Shown piece after piece: positions 9,646 to 32,452 of a stretch of 32,452 nucleotides of DNA. Position numbers and translations under genes: made by a program. Origin of the DNA: Chiloscyllium plagiosum. Taxonomy: Eukaryota. The stretch is from positions 3,903,763 through 3,936,214 of the forward strand of contig NC_057757.1 of assembly GCF_004010195.1 (NCBI RefSeq), read 5' to 3'. The notes under the pieces are model-generated. The model was not told the origin of the DNA. It did not search any database and saw only the letters and a program-made list of their open reading frames with translations. The stretch's first letter is position 1; every line of letters begins with the position of its first letter.

Positions 9646-10594
9646 ACGCTGGAGCTGTTTAACTTCTCTTTCCCCTTCAAGGGTTTCTATTTTATCCTGT
9701 GGTAAGTTATCCTGATGGTCACATGTTTCCTGATTCAACAGAAGTTTCTGACTGACTCACCCCCTCTCTGCAATCCCTCTCCTGTAAGAACCCGTACTTG
9801 AATTTAGCATTTTGCCAAGGAAATTGGGACCGCTCTTTGTTGAGTTATATTTTCATGTTTGTTGGGTGTTCAAACAGTTACTTTATTCAAAACTTGGTTT
9901 CCTTTTGTTTGTGTATAAATAAATCCTGTTTCATTTCAAACCGAGTGGTTTGACCAGTTGTGTCGCTGCTGGAATATCCACCTGACCCCTGCTTAAAACA
10001 ACGAAAAAAGCTCGGGTCTGGGCTGCCTGCTTAAAATGTTTGGGGGTGGGGTCTGCATGGTCCCTAACACCCGGCATTATCAGACTTTTGAACAGACCTC
10101 CCAAATATTAATTCTGATCTCTCGCTCTCTGTGACTGTAACTCTGCATTCTGCACTCTGTTCTACTTTCCTGACACACTCCGTATGATACGATCTGCCTT
10201 TCGAGCACACAAAACAATACTTTTCACTATATCTCTGGACATGTGACAACAATAAATCAATCCACGAGCCCTGGACACTTCTAGAGACAGATACTGCTGT
10301 TTGGAACGGTGGCCCGATTCCACCATAAATTGCCAAGTCGGGATGTGAGTCTAAACTTGCTTCCTTGAGGGGTGTTATTTTTCTAGTTAATTGTTTTCTA
10401 GTCATTGTTTTGGAACTTGACGGTTTGCAAGTTCTCTTAATAAGCAGCCGAATGGAAAGGAACTCATGGCGATTTACCCACAAGACCAGGATAGAAAAAA
10501 GCTTGGAGTCACGGAGTGGCTGGTGAAGGGAAGGACTGAGTCCGAATCAGACGCCAAGTTGGTGACATATTGGAATGAGATTGAATTGACTCAC

Positions 10595-10637
10595 CGACAC
10601 AGAGAGACAGAAGGAGGAGGTGAAGAGCAGAGCCCAT
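10595..10637 (-). CDS. Signal-peptide (leader) exon of the PILR-like gene
   Basis: ATG at 10637 in strong Kozak context (gcgATGG). Encodes MGSALHLLLLSLCV+G with phase-1 donor G|gtgagt. Joins the V exon to give MGSALHLLLLSLCVGMIHG/DGFTV. Missed by the ORF track. Confidence 0.85.
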
Positions 10638-10699
10638 CGCCGTGCCTGCTCTCGCTCTGGTCGTCTGCTTTCAATGATTACAAGAGAAATGTAGTGGGG

Positions 10700-10790
10700 T
10701 TTTATAACACACCCAGTCACTCCACACAGTTAGTTCTGCTTTCATGTCTTCCTGTTTTTCTGTGCTCCGACCAACTCCAGGCAGGAAGTG
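10700..10790 (-). promoter_or_regulatory. Putative core promoter: TATA box plus two ETS/PU.1-type sites
   Basis: TATAAAA on minus (10706-10700), about 63 nt upstream of the ATG. ACAGGAAG on minus (10748-10755) and CAGGAAGTG on plus (10782-10790), all in non-repetitive DNA. Confidence 0.65.
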
Positions 10791-11666
10791 GTATCCTCAA
10801 ACCGACTGAGGAGAGACGGTGGGAGTGTTTTTCTCACTTATTTCTAGAATTCCGATCTGCAAAGCAGCGAGGGGAGGGGGATCCAGAGGAGGATCCTGGG
10901 GGTAAAGGGCTTGTTGTATCAAGAGCGGTTGAGGACACTGGGTCTGTATTCAATGGAGTTTAAAAGGATTGGGGGTGGGGGGAGAGGCTCTAATTGAAAC
11001 TTGCAGAATACCGAGAGGCCTGGATAGAGTGGGCGTAGAGAATTGAAATAAATTAGTTATTAACCTGATGTGGAGGAGCCAGTGGTGGACTGGGATGGAC
11101 AAAGTTACAAATCGCACAACACCAGGTTATAGTCCAATGGATTTATTTGGAAGCACTAGCTTTTGGAATGCTGCTCCTTATCTTTGGAACGTATGTTTGT
11201 GGGTGACCTTTCGTCTTGATAAAGCAGGAAAAATTTGCAATTCTCAGCACTTTTTATGATTTTGTTTGCCTTCATTGCTTGAACCATTGACGTGGAACGT
11301 CATGTTGGAGTTGGACAGGACATTGGTGAGGCCACTTTTGGAGTACCGTGTGTAACTCTGGTTTCCTTGCTGTAGGAAGGTGGTTATGAACCTGGAGAGG
11401 GTGCAGAAATTATTCACATGATAAAATCATGAGGGGCATGGATAAGGTAAACAGCAAAGGCCTTTTCCCCAGGATAGGGGAGTTCAAACCTCGGAGGGCA
11501 TAACGTTAAGGTGAGAGAGGATAGATTTAAAAGGAACTTGAAGTGACAAAGTTTTCACACAGCGAGCGGGTGGTTTGTGCAAGGAATGAACAGCCAGAGG
11601 AAGTGGTAGCTGTTGGTACAGTTGAAACCTTTAAAAAAGACATTTGGACAGGGACATGGATAGGAA

Positions 11667-11887
11667 CGAGCTGGAAATGTGTTGCTGGAAAAGCGCAGCA
11701 GGTCAGGCAGCATCCAGTGAACAGGGGAATCGACGTTTCGGGCATAAGCCCTTCTTCAGGAATGAAGAAGGGCTTATGCCCGAAACGTCGATTCTCCTGT
11801 TCCCTGGATGCTGCCTGACCTGCTGCGCTTTTCCAGCAACACATTTCCAGCTCTGATCTCCAGCATCTGCAGACCTCACTTTCTCCT
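11667..11887. mobile_element. 221-bp Penelope-derived fold-back element with hammerhead core
   Basis: 12-bp TSD CATGGATAGGAA (11655-11666 / 11888-11899). 91-bp inverted arms 11668-11758 and 11763-11853 with 2 mismatches and a GGAA loop. Confidence 0.9.
11728..11763 (-). ncRNA. Minimal type I hammerhead ribozyme motif, core intact
   Basis: Minus strand reads AUUC-CUGAAGA-A-GGGC-UUAU-GCCC-GAAA-CG-UC^GAUU, fitting CUGANGA / stem II / GAAA / UH. Confidence 0.7.
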
Positions 11888-12230
11888 CATGGATAGGAAA
11901 GGTTTGGAGGGATGTGGGCCAAATGCAGGCAAGTGGGATGAGTTAGTTTGGGAAATGTGGTCAGCATGGACGAGTTGGACTGAAGGGTCTGTTTCCGTGC
12001 TATATGAGTCTCTGAGAAGATATTTCCGCCAGTGGGAGAGACTGGGACCCAAGGGCACAGCCTCAGGAGTGAAGGGATGGACTGAGATGAGGAGGAATTT
12101 CTTCAGCCAGAGGGTGGGGACTCTGTGGAACTGATGGCCACAGAGGGCTGTGGGGGCCAAGTCATTGAGTGTCTTTAAGATGGAGAGAGATGGGGTCCTG
12201 ATTGGTAAGGGGGGATGGAGGGTCACGGGG

Positions 12231-12730: not shown

Positions 12731-13832
12731 AGTAAATTTGCAGATGACACTAAGGTCGGTAGAGTTGTGGGGAGTGATGAAAGATGTTTTAGGTTACAGA
12801 GGGACATAGATAAGCTGCAGAGCTGGGCTGAGAGGTGGCAAATGGAGTTTAATGCGGAAAAGTGTGAGGTGATTCACTTTGGAAGAAACAACAGGAATGC
12901 AGAGTACTCGGCTAATGGTAAACTTCTTGGTAGTGGAGATCAGCAGAGAGATCTTGGTATCCATATACTAGATCCTTGAAAGTTGCCACCCAGGTTGATA
13001 GGGTTATTAAGAATGGAAATGTGTTGCTGGAAAATCACTTTGGAAGAAACAACAGGAATGCAGAGTACTCGGCTAATGGTAAGCTTCTTGGTAGTGGAGA
13101 TCAGCAGAGAGATCTTGGTATCCATATACATAGATCCTTGAAAGTTGCCACCCAGGTTGATAGGGTTATTAAGAATGGAAATGTGTTGCTGGAAAAGCGC
13201 AGCAGGTCAGGTTATTAAGAAGGCATACAGTATGTTAGCTCTTATTGGTAAAAGGATTGAGTTTCAGAACCATGAGGTTATGCTGCAGCTGTACAAAACT
13301 GTGGTGCGGCCACACTTGGAGCTTTGCATACAGTTCTGGTCACCGCATTATAGGAAGGATGTGGAAGCTTTGGAAAGGGTTCAGAGGAGGTTTACCAGGA
13401 TGTTGTTCAGTATAGGGGGAAGGTCTGAGGGACTTGAGGTTGTTTTCATTACAGAGAAGAAGGTTGAGAGGTGACTTAATTGAGACATATGCAATAATCA
13501 GAGGGTTAGATAGGGTGGACAGAGAGAGTCTTTTTCCTCAGATGGTGATGGCCAGCATAAGGGGGCATAGCTTTAAATTGAGGGGTGATAGATATAGGAC
13601 AGATGTCAGAGGTAGGTTCTTTATTCAGAGAGTAGTGAGGGTATGGAATGCCCTGCCTGCAACAGTAGTAGACTCGCCATCTTTAAGGGCATTTAAATGG
13701 TCATTGGATAGACATATGGATGAGAATGGAATAGTGTAGGTTAGATGGGCTTCAGATTGGTTCCACAGGTTGGCGCAACATCGAGGGCTGAAAGGCCTGT
13801 TCTGTGCTGTGATGTTCTATATTTGATGTTCT
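12731..13832 (+). mobile_element. CR1/HER1-type LINE 3' portion with ~160-bp tandem duplication
   Basis: SKFADDTKVG...WAERWQMEFNAEKCEV...VRPHLE.CIQFWSPHY...FFIQRVVRVWNALP; very similar to 6620-7500. Confidence 0.95.
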
Positions 13833-15282: not shown

Positions 15283-15872
15283 ATTTCTGAGAAGATTTGT
15301 AGCTCAGGGTGAGGTTCGGGTTGTAAGTTTGCTCGCTGAGCTGGAAGGTTTGTTCTCAGATGGTTCGTCACCATGCTAGGTAACATCATCAGTGAGGAGA
15401 CAGTGAAGTCTGCAAATGCTGGAGATCAGAGTTGAGAGTGTGTTGCTGGAAAAGCACAGCAGGTCAGGCAGCATCCAAGGAGCAGGAGGATCGATGTTTC
15501 GGGCCGGAGCCCTTCATTGGACATCATCAGTGAGCCTCCTGCGAAGCACTGGTGTTATGTTCAACTTTATGTGTCTTGGTCTGGTAAATTGGATGATATC
15601 ATTTCCTTATTCTCAGAGGTTGATAAATGGGGTCCAAATCGATGTGTTTATTGATGGAGTTCCGGTTTGAATGCCAGGCCTTTAGGAATTCCCGTGCATG
15701 TCTCTGTTAGCCTGTCCCAGGCTGGATGTGTTGTCCCAGTCAAAATGGTGTCCTCCTTCATCCGTATGTCAGGATACGAGTGACAGTGGGTCATGCCTTT
15801 TGGTGACTAGTTGATGTTCGTGTATCCTGGTGGCTAGTTTGCTGCCTGTCTGTCCGATGTAGTGTTTGCTGC
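15283..15872 (-). mobile_element. Penelope-like element fragment (GIY-YIG endonuclease + 3' terminal repeat with hammerhead remnant)
   Basis: KHYIGQTGSKLATRIHEHQLVTKRHDPLSLVS*H...HHFDWDN...INKHIDLDPIY. Downstream CUCA-CUGAUGA-U-GUUAC...GUGAC-GAACCAUC-UGAG at 15355-15396. Confidence 0.85.
15397..15520 (-). mobile_element. Single-arm copy of the short Penelope-derived element
   Basis: Same sequence family as 11667-11887; 14-bp TSD ACATCATCAGTGAG (15383-15396 / 15521-15534). Confidence 0.85.
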
Positions 15873-16712
15873 CATCCAGCAATATGTATTTATATTGACC
15901 CTGGGGACATGGATGTTGCTGACTGGTCCAGCATTTATTGCTCATCCCTAATTGCCCCTTGAGAAGGTGGTGGTGAGCTGCCTTCTTGAACCACTTGTGA
16001 CATTGCTGCCCCTTTAACAAGGTTCTTTTGTCTTTAGATTTTTTTCAAGGGGGTCGTAAAGGCAGACGTGCCGAAATGCCTGGAGTGGGCTACTTTAAAC
16101 AAGGGCATGGGAGTGGCCAGTACTTCCAGTTCAGATTGTTTTCTCGTCTGTTTTTTATTAGGAGGCAGTCAGAAACATCTGGTAGCAGAGACACTGCTAC
16201 TGTGAAAAAGGGTCCCATGTTTCAACAAATGTTTCTTGCCTGACTCTTCTCATTGCAATCTCTCCTGACTTTAAGAACCTGTGTTTGAATTTGCTGAGGG
16301 GTGTGTCGATCGTAAAACATAGAACGGTACAGGCCCTTCGGCCCTCGTTGTTATGCCTGCCTTTTATCCTACTCTAAGATCAGACTAACCGACATACCCT
16401 TCATTGTACTATCTTCCATGTGCCAATCCAAGAATCACTTAAATGTCCCTAATGTCTCTGACTCTACTGGTTCTGCCGGCAGTGCCTTCCACGCACCCAC
16501 CACGCTCCGAGTAAAGAACCTATCTCTGATATTTCCCCTAAACCTTCCTCTAATCACCTTAAAACTGTGCCCCCTCATTCCCGCCTTGGGAAAAAGTGTC
16601 TGGCTGTCCACTCTATCTATGCCTCTCAATATCTTGTACACCTCTATCAAGTCACCTCTCATCCTTCTTCGCTCCACTGAAAAAGATCTAGCTCCCTCAA
16701 CCGTTTTTGTAA

Positions 16713-25733: not shown

Positions 25734-25954
25734 GTCAAAACATGTGGTGGTGAGAAAGCACAGCAGGTCAGGCAGCATCCGAGGAGCAAGAGAATCGACG
25801 TTTCGGGCATTAGCCCCTTTATCACATTCCTGATGAAGGGCTAATGCCTGAAACGTCGAATCTCCTGCTCCTCAGATGCTGCCTGACCCCCTGTGCTTTC
25901 CCTGCAATGCCTTTTTTAACTCTGATCTCCAGCGTCTGCAGCCCTCACTTTCTC
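25734..25954. mobile_element. 221-bp Penelope-derived fold-back element, second and more diverged copy
   Basis: 15-bp TSD CCAGTTCAGTTTCTA (25719-25733 / 25955-25969); inverted arms centred at ~25827. Confidence 0.88.
25826..25861 (+). ncRNA. Minimal type I hammerhead ribozyme motif, core intact
   Basis: AUUC-CUGAUGA-A-GGGC-UAAU-GCCU-GAAA-CG-UC^GAAU. Stem I AUUC/GAAU is fully paired and ACGU is palindromic in place of stem III. Predicted cut after 25857. Confidence 0.72.
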
Positions 25955-26158
25955 CCAGTTCAGTTTCTACTCAGTGGTAACTCCTCCCCCCCACCCCACC
26001 CCACCGCCCAGGATGTTGATCGTGTGGGAGGGGATTCAGCCTTGGTAACACCACTGAATGTCAAACGGCAACAGTTCAGTTGTTGGAGACAGCCATTGCC
26101 TGGCATTCGTATGGCGCCGATCTTACTTTCATTAAAGTGGTCCTCTCTCTGTTTTCAG

Positions 26159-26365
26159 CGCGGCGATCAAATTCTTCCACATCCACGGTCAAAGCCATCA
26201 TGGTTTCAACATGGCAACCAATGTCTTCTACAACCATGGTAACAACCATGGGAAAATGTCAGAAGTTGCCCTGGATTGTAGCGATTGCGTGTGTAGTGAT
26301 AGTGCTCATTGCTATCATGGTGATAGCAGCTACCGTATACTGCAAGAAAAAACGTCAGCAGCGAG
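26159..26365 (+). CDS. Ser/Thr-rich stalk + transmembrane exon of an inhibitory-type Ig receptor
   Basis: 207 nt, phase 1/1. Acceptor tcctctctctgttttcag|CG, donor CGAG|gtaagg. Encodes ARRSNSSTSTVKAIMVSTWQPMSSTTMVTTMGKCQK-LPWIVAIACVVIVLIAIMVIAATVYC-KKKRQQR (uncharged TM, basic stop-transfer). Confidence 0.9.
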
Positions 26366-27494
26366 GTAAGGAGTCCGTCCCCAGTACCCACACCCCTCGC
26401 CATGGGCCATTTCCTCCAAGGGACCCGGGCATCACTTATGGGGTGCCAACGAGTACCCAGTTGCCCTCATGAAGGTGGCATTCTCCTCCCGTCTCCACAG
26501 GAGCACCCCCTTCCCTTCTCACAGAGCGACCCCTCTTTCCCAGAGGGCAGCTCAAGCGTCAACCTCCGTCGCCACGGGTCTGGAGTCACGTGTGCTGCCC
26601 GGACCGGGTAAGGGTGGCAGGGACCCCTTCCCCCTCGAGGGCGGGATTTTTAAACTCCGAGAGATGAATCCATTGGTTTTGGGGACCCAATAGAGATCTC
26701 ACCAGGTTTGGCTCCTGGAGTGACTTGCTTCACTGTGATTCCTCCCACCCATACCCCTCCCCCACCTCGGTGCCATCCCATACTCTGAGTCAACCAACCT
26801 GGCACTATTACTGTGCCCGTCTCGCTAGGTCATTGATGCCCATGTACCAATCGGAAAGCCATTCCTGGCACAGGTCATAGGGGCACCCGTTACCTCAGAG
26901 AGAACTCTCACCATCATTGCCCACTGCCTACTCAGAGGTTGGCGGGGCACAAAGGAAGAGGTTGGGCGGGCCTGAATTGATGTTGTCAGATTGAGGTACA
27001 GTGAAAGGTTTTGTTGTGCATCTCTCAGCACAAGCTGTTGGGCCCATTGTGCTAGTATGAGTTCCCCCTCTGATCCCCCTCCCCCCAGGTGCCAATGCTT
27101 ATCCGATTCCCTTCGGAAAGTTGCCAAGGGAGACTCTTCCCACATGGTGGGTGGCAATCCGAACCCCAAATTCTCCTCCCAAAGAGAAAATGGCATCTCG
27201 GGACAACACAAGGGCAAGAAGGTCAAGGAGCAAGCTTTCCTGAAAAGGGGAATAGGGACCAGGAACAGTGCATCATACCACCCTCTGCCATGTCTTCCAG
27301 ACCAAACCGCGGTCAGTCACAGATTTCAAGAGTGGGATTGGTGCATTTTTTGTTGTGGAGAAAGCGAGGGCAGATAGTATGCTCTGGTGGGGCTGAATGG
27401 CCTCCTCCTGTTCTGATAACCTGACCCTGAAACACATGCCAATCACAGGCCAGAGGCTGCAGTGAATCTGAAACCAAATGGAACTCTTTCAAAA

Positions 27495-28080: not shown

Positions 28081-28955
28081 GTACAGCATGGAAACAGACC
28101 CTTCGGTCCAACTTGTCCATGCTGGCCAGATATCCCAATCTAATCTAGTCCCATTTGGCAGCATTTGGCCCATATCCCTCTAAACCCTTCCTAATCCTGT
28201 ATCCATCCAGATGCCTTTTAAATGCTGTAATTGTAACAGCTTCTACTGCTTCCCCTGGTAGCTCATTCCATACATGCACCATCCTCGGTCTGATAAAATT
28301 GCCCCTCAGGTCCCTTTTAAATCTTTCCCCTCTCATCTTAAACCTTTGCTCTCTAGTTTCAGACTCCCCCACCCAGGGGAAAAAGGCCTTGTCTATTTAC
28401 CCTCTCCTTGACCCTCATGATTTCTATAAGGTCATAACTCAGCCTCCAACACTTGGGGTGGCACAGTGGCTCAGTGGCTAGCACTGTAGCCTCATAGCAC
28501 CAGCGTCTCAGGTTCAATTCCAGTCTTGGGTGACTGTCTGTATGGAGTTTGCACATTCTCCCTGTGCCGGCGTGGGTTTCCTCCTACAGTCCAAAGCAGT
28601 GCAGGTGTGGTGAATTGGCCATGCTAAATTGCCCCTAGTGTTAAGCGTGTCATTCAGAGGGAAATGGGTCTGGGTGGGTTACTCTTTGGAGGGTTGATGT
28701 GGACTGGTTGGGCCAAAGGGCCTGTTTCCACATTGTAGGGAATCTAATCTAAATACCCCAGCCTCTCCCTATAGCTCAAACCCCAGCAACATCCTTGTAA
28801 ATCTTTTCTGAACCCTTTCAAGTTTAACAACATCCTTCCTATAGCAGGGAGACCAGAATTGCACACAATATTCCACAAGTGGGCCGAACCAATGTCCTGT
28901 ACAGCCTCAACATGACCTCCCAACTCCTGTACTCGATTCACTGACCAATAAAGGT
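28075..28955 (-). mobile_element. CR1-type LINE 3' portion containing an HE1 SINE (28455-28752, +)
   Basis: Minus-strand RFKMRGERFKRDLRGNF...VWNELPGEAVEA. SINE head GGGGTGGCACAGTGGCTCAGTGG and tail AATCTAATCTAA. Confidence 0.88.
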
Positions 28956-32200: not shown

Positions 32201-32452
32201 GAAAAAACAATGACTGCAGATGCTGGAAATCAGATTCTGGATTAGTGGTGCTGGAAAAGCACAGCAGTTCAGGCAGCATCCGAGGAGCAGTAATATCGAC
32301 GTTTTGGGCAAAAGCCCTTCATCAGGAATACAGGCAGAGTGCCTGAAGGGTGGAGAGATAAATAAGAGGAGGGTGGGTGTGGGGAGAAAGTAGCATAGAG
32401 TACAATAGGTGAGTGGGGGAGGGGATGAAGGTGATAGGTCAGGGAGGAGGGT
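32201..32452 (-). mobile_element. 3' end of a longer Penelope-derived element running off the window; hammerhead remnant 32294-32329
   Basis: Same terminal family as 11667-11887. Minus strand reads AUUC-CUGAUGA-A-GGGC-UUUU-GCCC-AAAACGUC (GAAA changed to AAAA). Confidence 0.8.

Follow-up and report, generated by a model that had tools for sequence, protein, structure and literature searches.

A near-perfect hairpin of 221 bases, carrying a hammerhead ribozyme motif, lies at positions 11667–11887 of a 32,452-nucleotide stretch of the Chiloscyllium plagiosum genome (contig NC_057757.1, 3,903,763 to 3,936,214; hereafter the window). The locus raises the question of whether such a hairpin is a mobile unit in its own right, transcribed, re-inserted and bounded by its ribozyme, or whether it is formed anew at each insertion from the ends of a larger element.

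The hairpin and its target site

Recomputed coordinates and folding bear out the inverted repeat as it was given in the preliminary description. The arms (11668–11758 and 11763–11853) are 91 nt each and 98% complementary, with two mismatches in total (11718/11803 and 11726/11795) and a 4-nt loop, GGAA. The structure folds at −198 kcal/mol (z −24.6), and none of 200 shuffles folded equally well. A 34-nt tail at 11854–11887 is unpaired and present on one side only, making the element asymmetric. A 12-bp repeat, CATGGATAGGAA, flanks the insert at 11655–11666 and 11888–11899, and when the insert is removed the joined flanks match a second copy of the host LINE tail, at 28341–28082, across the site (75.7%, 267 nt). 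Because the flanks align over the empty site of this paralog, the 12-mer was single-copy before insertion and is a true target site duplication (TSD). The earlier claims of a TSD and of a recent insertion were right. The host LINE at 11501–12010 we take to be CR1-type. The parts are listed below; q0 is the A of ATTCC at position 11763 on the minus strand, and pLTR stands for pseudo-LTR.

11655–11666, plus strand: left TSD, CATGGATAGGAA, from the empty-site paralog comparison
11667, no strand assigned: extra base C at the boundary between TSD and element
11668–11763, minus strand: long arm, pLTR q0–q95, terminating in the tail-less end cluster, a putative upstream RT start site
11728–11763, minus strand: minimal type I hammerhead, by the descriptor of PMC4209133
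11763–11760 and 11731–11728, minus strand: 5' and 3' strands of hammerhead helix I, with one U-U mismatch
11759–11753, minus strand: hammerhead core CUGAAGA, followed by the unpaired A at 11752 and helix II at 11751–11740
11739–11736 and 11735–11732, minus strand: hammerhead GAAA and CGUC, with the expected cut at 11732/11731
11759–11765, no strand assigned: head-to-head junction with loop GGAA and a T common to both; microhomology of up to 3 nt (TGA) if one cDNA went 2 nt beyond q0
11763–11853, plus strand: short-start arm, pLTR q5–q95, its hammerhead without C3 and without the helix I 5' strand
11854–11887, plus strand: one-sided tail of 34 nt, q96–q129, between two putative RT start sites (compare PMC11167929)
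11888–11899, plus strand: right TSD
11501–12010, plus strand: degraded LINE 3' end, the host sequence split by the insert (paralog at 28341–28082)

Several other features of the window surround the insertion. An Ig V-set exon with a weak CD22-like match lies within 2175–2999 on the minus strand, and a leader-like (signal-peptide-like) exon with its ATG at 10637 occupies 10594–10637 on the same strand; the two appear to belong to one gene. As the leader-like exon is 1.03 kb from the element, the earlier placement of the hairpin about 0.9 kb upstream of a receptor promoter is plausible from this arrangement of exons. The RNA data gave no evidence of transcription through the hairpin, and so none of the dsRNA proposed near the receptor: no RNA was listed for 10100–11660, a sample of about 2% of one read run had no depth at 10255–11047 and a second run gave no alignments, a coverage that does not bear on receptor expression or read-through. 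A transmembrane-like exon at 26020–26472 is on the plus strand, opposite to the Ig V-set and leader-like exons, and the three likely represent a paired Ig-like receptor gene cluster. Adjoining the Ig exon, at 540–2363, is a 104-bp tandem array of ∼99% identical copies, possibly the repeat of a mucin-like stalk, or else an artefact of assembly.

Related copies are also present. An older hairpin of the same family (25742–25955, ∼80% identity, 21-nt spacer) has its tail attached to the arm whose hammerhead is complete, a polarity opposite to that of the studied copy. Single-arm copies lie on the minus strand at 15393–15515 and 32214–32329, the former inside an apparent second Penelope family with a hammerhead-like motif near 15350–15395 and, at 15769–16044, a GIY-YIG-like peptide without a Pfam match. 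Within a LINE ORF, a piece at 13164–13221 with its own 12-bp TSD, GGTTATTAAGAA, contains 34–36 nt identical to the left end of the hairpin; a 162-bp duplication upstream of it repeats 21 nt of the insert at 13014–13034. This piece may derive from second-strand cDNA synthesis that was aborted, or from faulty assembly.

Penelope pseudo-LTRs and their hammerhead

Genome-wide counts, made as exact pattern matches over the 3.56-Gb genome, returned 57,181 matches to a 41-mer from the arm and 18,012 to a 36-mer over the hammerhead (q0–35). Upstream of q0, longer copies contain a C-rich UTR and beyond it a frame with a GIY-YIG domain (Pfam E 6.5e-5, above the cut-off); the frame recurs in long loci and is preceded by a CX4CX2C linker (CNRRRCKTC in locus L325). 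Locus L172 contains a broken RT, the linker, the endonuclease (EN) and then a diverged pLTR, and locus L097 contains RT/EN homology followed by a pLTR. Protein relatives at 47–51% identity are ∼900-aa RVT_1 plus GIY-YIG proteins, the best of them from carpet sharks. No intact full-length element was recovered; the interiors of young copies are assembly gaps, so the linkage of RT, EN and pLTR depends on older, broken copies. Long open frames were considered as coding candidates and discarded, as they consist mostly of N runs. From their identity with the pLTR downstream of RT, linker and GIY-YIG, the arms are, on sequence grounds, pseudo-LTRs of an RT plus GIY-YIG (EN+) Penelope-like element (PLE). 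The Penelope origin proposed earlier is thus borne out by an RT, a CxxC linker and a GIY-YIG domain upstream of the same pLTR. A CX2-5CxxC linker between RT and EN defines the Neptune and Nematis clades (PMC8557442); the parent element has such a linker and is probably Neptune-type. The published insertion pattern of EN+ PLEs is an inverted truncated pLTR with a one-sided tail of 30–40 bp and a TSD (PMC3846280, PMC8557442, PMC8969392), and the studied copy fits it with its inverted pLTR, 34-nt tail and TSD. We conclude that it is one recent insertion, of a known kind of Penelope stub, and likely dead on arrival.

The ribozyme motif is complete on one arm only. On the minus strand it reads CUGAAGA-A-GGGC(UUAU)GCCC-GAAA-CGUC from 11759, and the plus arm begins at U, without C3; the coordinates agree with the preliminary description, which gave a complete core on the minus strand and a plus-arm copy lacking the first C. 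The minus arm matches the minimal hammerhead descriptor of PMC4209133, and it was right to assign the motif to the minimal type I class, with stem III a CG palindrome. Across the window and 770 kb of tiles this descriptor gave 48 matches, against none in the reversed control. Among the 46 tile matches, Watson-Crick pairs at helix I positions 1–2 number 67 against a shuffle mean of 53 (0/2000), a value that related sequences inflate; the palindromic 15.2–16.2 pair is CG in 25, GC in 8 and TG in 9, and helix I pair 3 is U-U in 24, including the subfamily of the studied copy. The conserved core is therefore present, as is stem covariation, albeit that of helix I and the CG/GC palindrome is between Penelope families; within the studied family helix II is near-invariant and its loop varies. 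Hammerhead covariance models, which had been suggested as a check, gave no support: the eight Rfam matches at E≤5 include no hammerhead family, only weak miRNA-like hairpins below gathering.

At least two other minimal-hammerhead families occur in tiles L097, L114, L123, L126, L128, L130, L166, L173 and L180, with helix II GTTACC/GGTAAT or with helix II GGAGC/GCTCC, a GC palindrome and a CAC/GTG helix I.

The hairpin itself disfavors ribozyme folding. Stem II has a probability of ∼5e-15 in the hairpin versus 0.81–0.99 in single arms, at a cost of 20.5 kcal/mol. Any transcript through the studied copy would form a 91-bp duplex masking the ribozyme, which is predicted to be sequestered in both transcript directions with its cleavage blocked. 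Dimer cleavage of hammerheads is reportedly the subject of Lünse et al. 2017. In loci L285, L286 and L299, past locus position 1532, native sequence continues for ∼90 nt beyond the tail and then meets another pLTR, entered at q0 or close to it; by this layout these loci are candidate short tandems, arranged head to tail, that carry two hammerheads in the manner of a retrozyme and might cleave as dimers.

Nor is the element cleavage-bounded. A purine precedes the cleavage site in 885 copies; true junctions account for 16 of the 30 that were inspected, which puts this end roughly ninefold below q0. As few copies start at the cleavage site, the RNA templates were mostly uncut, and we rejected cleavage-defined 5' ends as the main class, although there may be a minor cleaved fraction.

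Formation of the inverted ends

The junction of the studied copy has 858 exact copies in the genome, and the first 30 of these were compared closely. A non-autonomous, SINE- or MITE-like hairpin, transcribed and re-inserted as a ribozyme-bounded unit, would be in keeping with so many exact junctions, with uniform sizes of ∼220 bp and TSDs, and with the prevalence of two junction types, which together cover about half of the 50 short-spacer hairpins examined first. Against it, 14 of the 30 copies have the tail on the full arm, 15 on the truncated arm and one on neither, and there are four loop II variants (TTAT 16, CTGT 8, TCAT 4, TAAT 2), the variant agreeing between both arms in nearly all copies. 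Arm mismatches are nearly all private. In the 25 of 31 arm pairs used (six short-arm pairs were excluded) the mean number of differences is 1.6 arm-to-arm versus 5.9 copy-to-copy, and seven private variants are present in both arms of their copy. There are 47 one-arm differences, of which the recurrent ones are at CpG except for q36 (twice) and a 3-nt deletion (twice) whose two carriers have tails on opposite arms; both arm mismatches of the studied copy are unique among the copies compared. Recurrence of the junction can come from the native TCA-TTCC-TGA, which supplies it with ready microhomology. A further 4,079 hairpins of one subfamily have spacers of ≤15 nt, with ∼20 spacer types among the first 50 loci by hand count. 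By analogy with PAc, whose RT requires downstream sequence (PMC11167929), the hairpin copies would end short of what they need. Members of a SINE- or MITE-like family descend from a master whose ends and internal structure are fixed, and these copies do not share one. Recurrent formation fits the data better than a master hairpin, and re-insertion as a unit is hardly credible. The earlier proposal of a ribozyme-bounded SINE-like family is thus unsupported, given the varied junctions, tail sides and loops, the private mismatches and the lack of an end pile-up at the cleavage site; the copy count and TSD survey suggested along with it did yield the 858 junction copies, with a TSD detected in 26 of 30, but they are not one family.

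How the two arms came together is addressed by an anchor sample selected by q48–88 only, comprising 84 insertions in the first 4.3 Mb of one contig. Nine that touch gaps were excluded, leaving 75 gap-free insertions in which long copies are consequently under-counted. Inverted insertions make up 41 of the 75, with exactly one tailed arm in 36, a 13–19 nt TSD in 33 (tolerating one mismatch and boundary slop) and the further-reaching arm beginning at q−2 to +6 in 36; 15 of the 34 single-arm copies reach upstream of q−3. The 3' ends form two clusters, at about q88–100 and q125–129. Of the 41 inversions, 21 have the tail on whichever arm starts later, as the studied copy does, and 15 have it on the further-reaching arm. 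Fold-back of one cDNA cannot yield a second arm that exceeds its template, so the geometry of the studied copy rules out a simple fold-back and points to two cDNAs. Very probably, then, the hairpin consists of two pLTR ends joined head to head within one insertion, from two cDNAs. Self-priming, whereby a single cDNA extends to the 5' end, folds back at TCA/TGA and then serves as its own template, has been proposed for PLEs (PMC3846280) and seen for R2 (PMC11371274). There is an imperfect natural 7-bp stem across the junction, private variants are common to both arms, and self-priming can produce the 15 inversions tailed on the further-reaching arm. However, it cannot place a tail on the later-starting arm, where the studied copy and 21 of the 41 have it, and it leaves unexplained why the second arm stops in the same cluster at q∼94; we consider it quite improbable.

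In the two-cDNA reading, the element's protein would nick both DNA strands ∼12–16 bp apart, and from each nick RT would be primed at one of two internal start sites that are separated by ∼34 nt. Synthesis would pass the uncut hammerhead and reach the 5' end of the RNA, which is probably capped and begins at the initiator-like TCA(+1)TTCC, and the cDNA 3' ends would unite through 1–3 nt of microhomology.

The 5' ends of insertions accumulate at q−3 to +7, and the initiator-like A is the ribozyme's first base. Exact counts fall from 39,178 (q9–35) to 18,012 (q0–35) and to 8,971 with the native CCTC, each drop being due partly to mutation and subfamily variation. At −1, where the native base is C, 2,926 copies have G versus at most 1,994 with A or T, the latter counted with a slightly shorter pattern (by hand count, the first 100 comprise 68 A and 32 T); the control count made at q32 contains few copies (G 9, A 7). 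This G excess in an AT-rich genome fits copying of the cap by RT, and an extra 5' G on full-length L1 has been attributed to the cap (PMC11702581). Many of the G residues equal the target or partner-arm base, so part of the excess could stem from a microhomology bias or from untemplated addition of C, and several of the G residues are clearly untemplated. A splice junction at q0 was ruled out, since the preceding base is not AG and the upstream sequences vary. TCATTCC matches the initiator consensus, with A+1 at q0. Molecule starts in family-mapped RNA reads do not pile up at q0; the reads are from both strands and have the appearance of passive read-through of genomic copies.

We lean towards a capped transcript start at q0. 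By the same insertion route, the pile-up could instead reflect stalling of RT or template release at the 5' edge of the hammerhead or the C-rich UTR, with no capped start. Helix I begins exactly at q0, the RNA reads lack a start there, half of the q0-reaching copies extend upstream, and the D. virilis start precedes the hammerhead by ∼120 nt (PMC2377424, PMC4209133). What makes stalling the less likely account is that the RT stop comes after the whole ribozyme has been traversed and that G at −1 exceeds A and T combined, with several instances clearly untemplated. The fit of TCATTCC to the initiator consensus also counts against stalling, which we regard as possible but unlikely. The fuller proposal is that thousands of the stubs are fossils of the Penelope reaction in vivo, in which the transcript has a capped start on the hammerhead's first base, a dimer primes both nicks with one subunit per start site, RT traverses the intact ribozyme and copies the cap as an extra G, and two strong-stop-like cDNAs are united head to head; we give this about an even chance. 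If true, a single model accounts for pLTR inversion, for a tail on one side only and for the TSD, and insertion ends are not set by ribozyme cleavage.

The studied copy is ordinary and probably inert. The family, in turn, is a large natural data set on inverted-end formation and hammerhead use in PLEs, both left open in PMC11167929. The counts for the studied junction and the short-spacer subfamily imply many perfect ∼90-bp hairpins genome-wide, and these are possible dsRNA sources, a candidate role.

Comparison with known systems

Judged by title and abstract opening, the open-access papers listed on these topics yielded nothing on shark Penelope stubs or a PLE cap G. The tail-side argument for two cDNAs and the genome-wide G count appear to be new here, although the insertion ends in Fig. 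S2 of PMC11167929 may bear on that.

The nearest counterparts are EN+ PLE units (Adineta Pen2a, PMC3846280; PMC8557442; D. virilis Penelope, PMC2377424), which are like the studied copy in their head-to-head pLTRs and TSD. Tail length is 34 nt here, 31 in Adineta Pen2a, and the repeat in D. virilis Penelope is 34 bp; those units and our family both have a pLTR hammerhead and a GIY-YIG domain at the ORF end. Unlike them, the studied copy is minimal (96 + 125 nt, without an ORF), and its family has tens of thousands of copies with 5' ends at one position.

In PAc, a Poseidon element of Anolis, two internal RT start sites bound the tail and both strands are nicked and extended; the protein is a predicted dimer, and uncut RNA is the main template in vitro (PMC11167929). 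The two 3'-end clusters of the studied family match these start sites, and its templates would likewise have been mostly uncut. It differs from PAc in its CX4CX2C linker, of Neptune/Nematis type, and the main text on PAc describes no 5'-end pile-up, extra G or inverted-end joining.

Metazoan PLE hammerheads (PMC4209133) share the CUGANGA core, the unpaired base after position 9, G10.1-C11.1, the palindromic 15.2–16.2 pair and a short helix I. They are dimer-dependent and weak in vitro, and opposite-strand pairs 100–700 bp apart were already known. By comparison, the motif here has a 4-bp helix II and, in this subfamily, a U-U mismatch in helix I, and it is trapped within a duplex of 91 bp. Animal non-LTR retrozymes (bioRxiv 10.64898/2026.07.22.740005) are similarly PLE-derived and non-coding with a type I hammerhead, although they are head-to-tail tandem units with at least two complete ribozymes; that identity was ruled out for the studied copy, which is inverted and has a single complete motif. 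Finally, there are parallels to twin priming by L1 (PMC11702581), which also shows an inversion, a preserved 12–18 bp TSD, microhomology and an extra G. L1, however, inverts adjacent non-overlapping segments, whereas the two cDNAs here derive from one and the same segment, which produces a palindrome.
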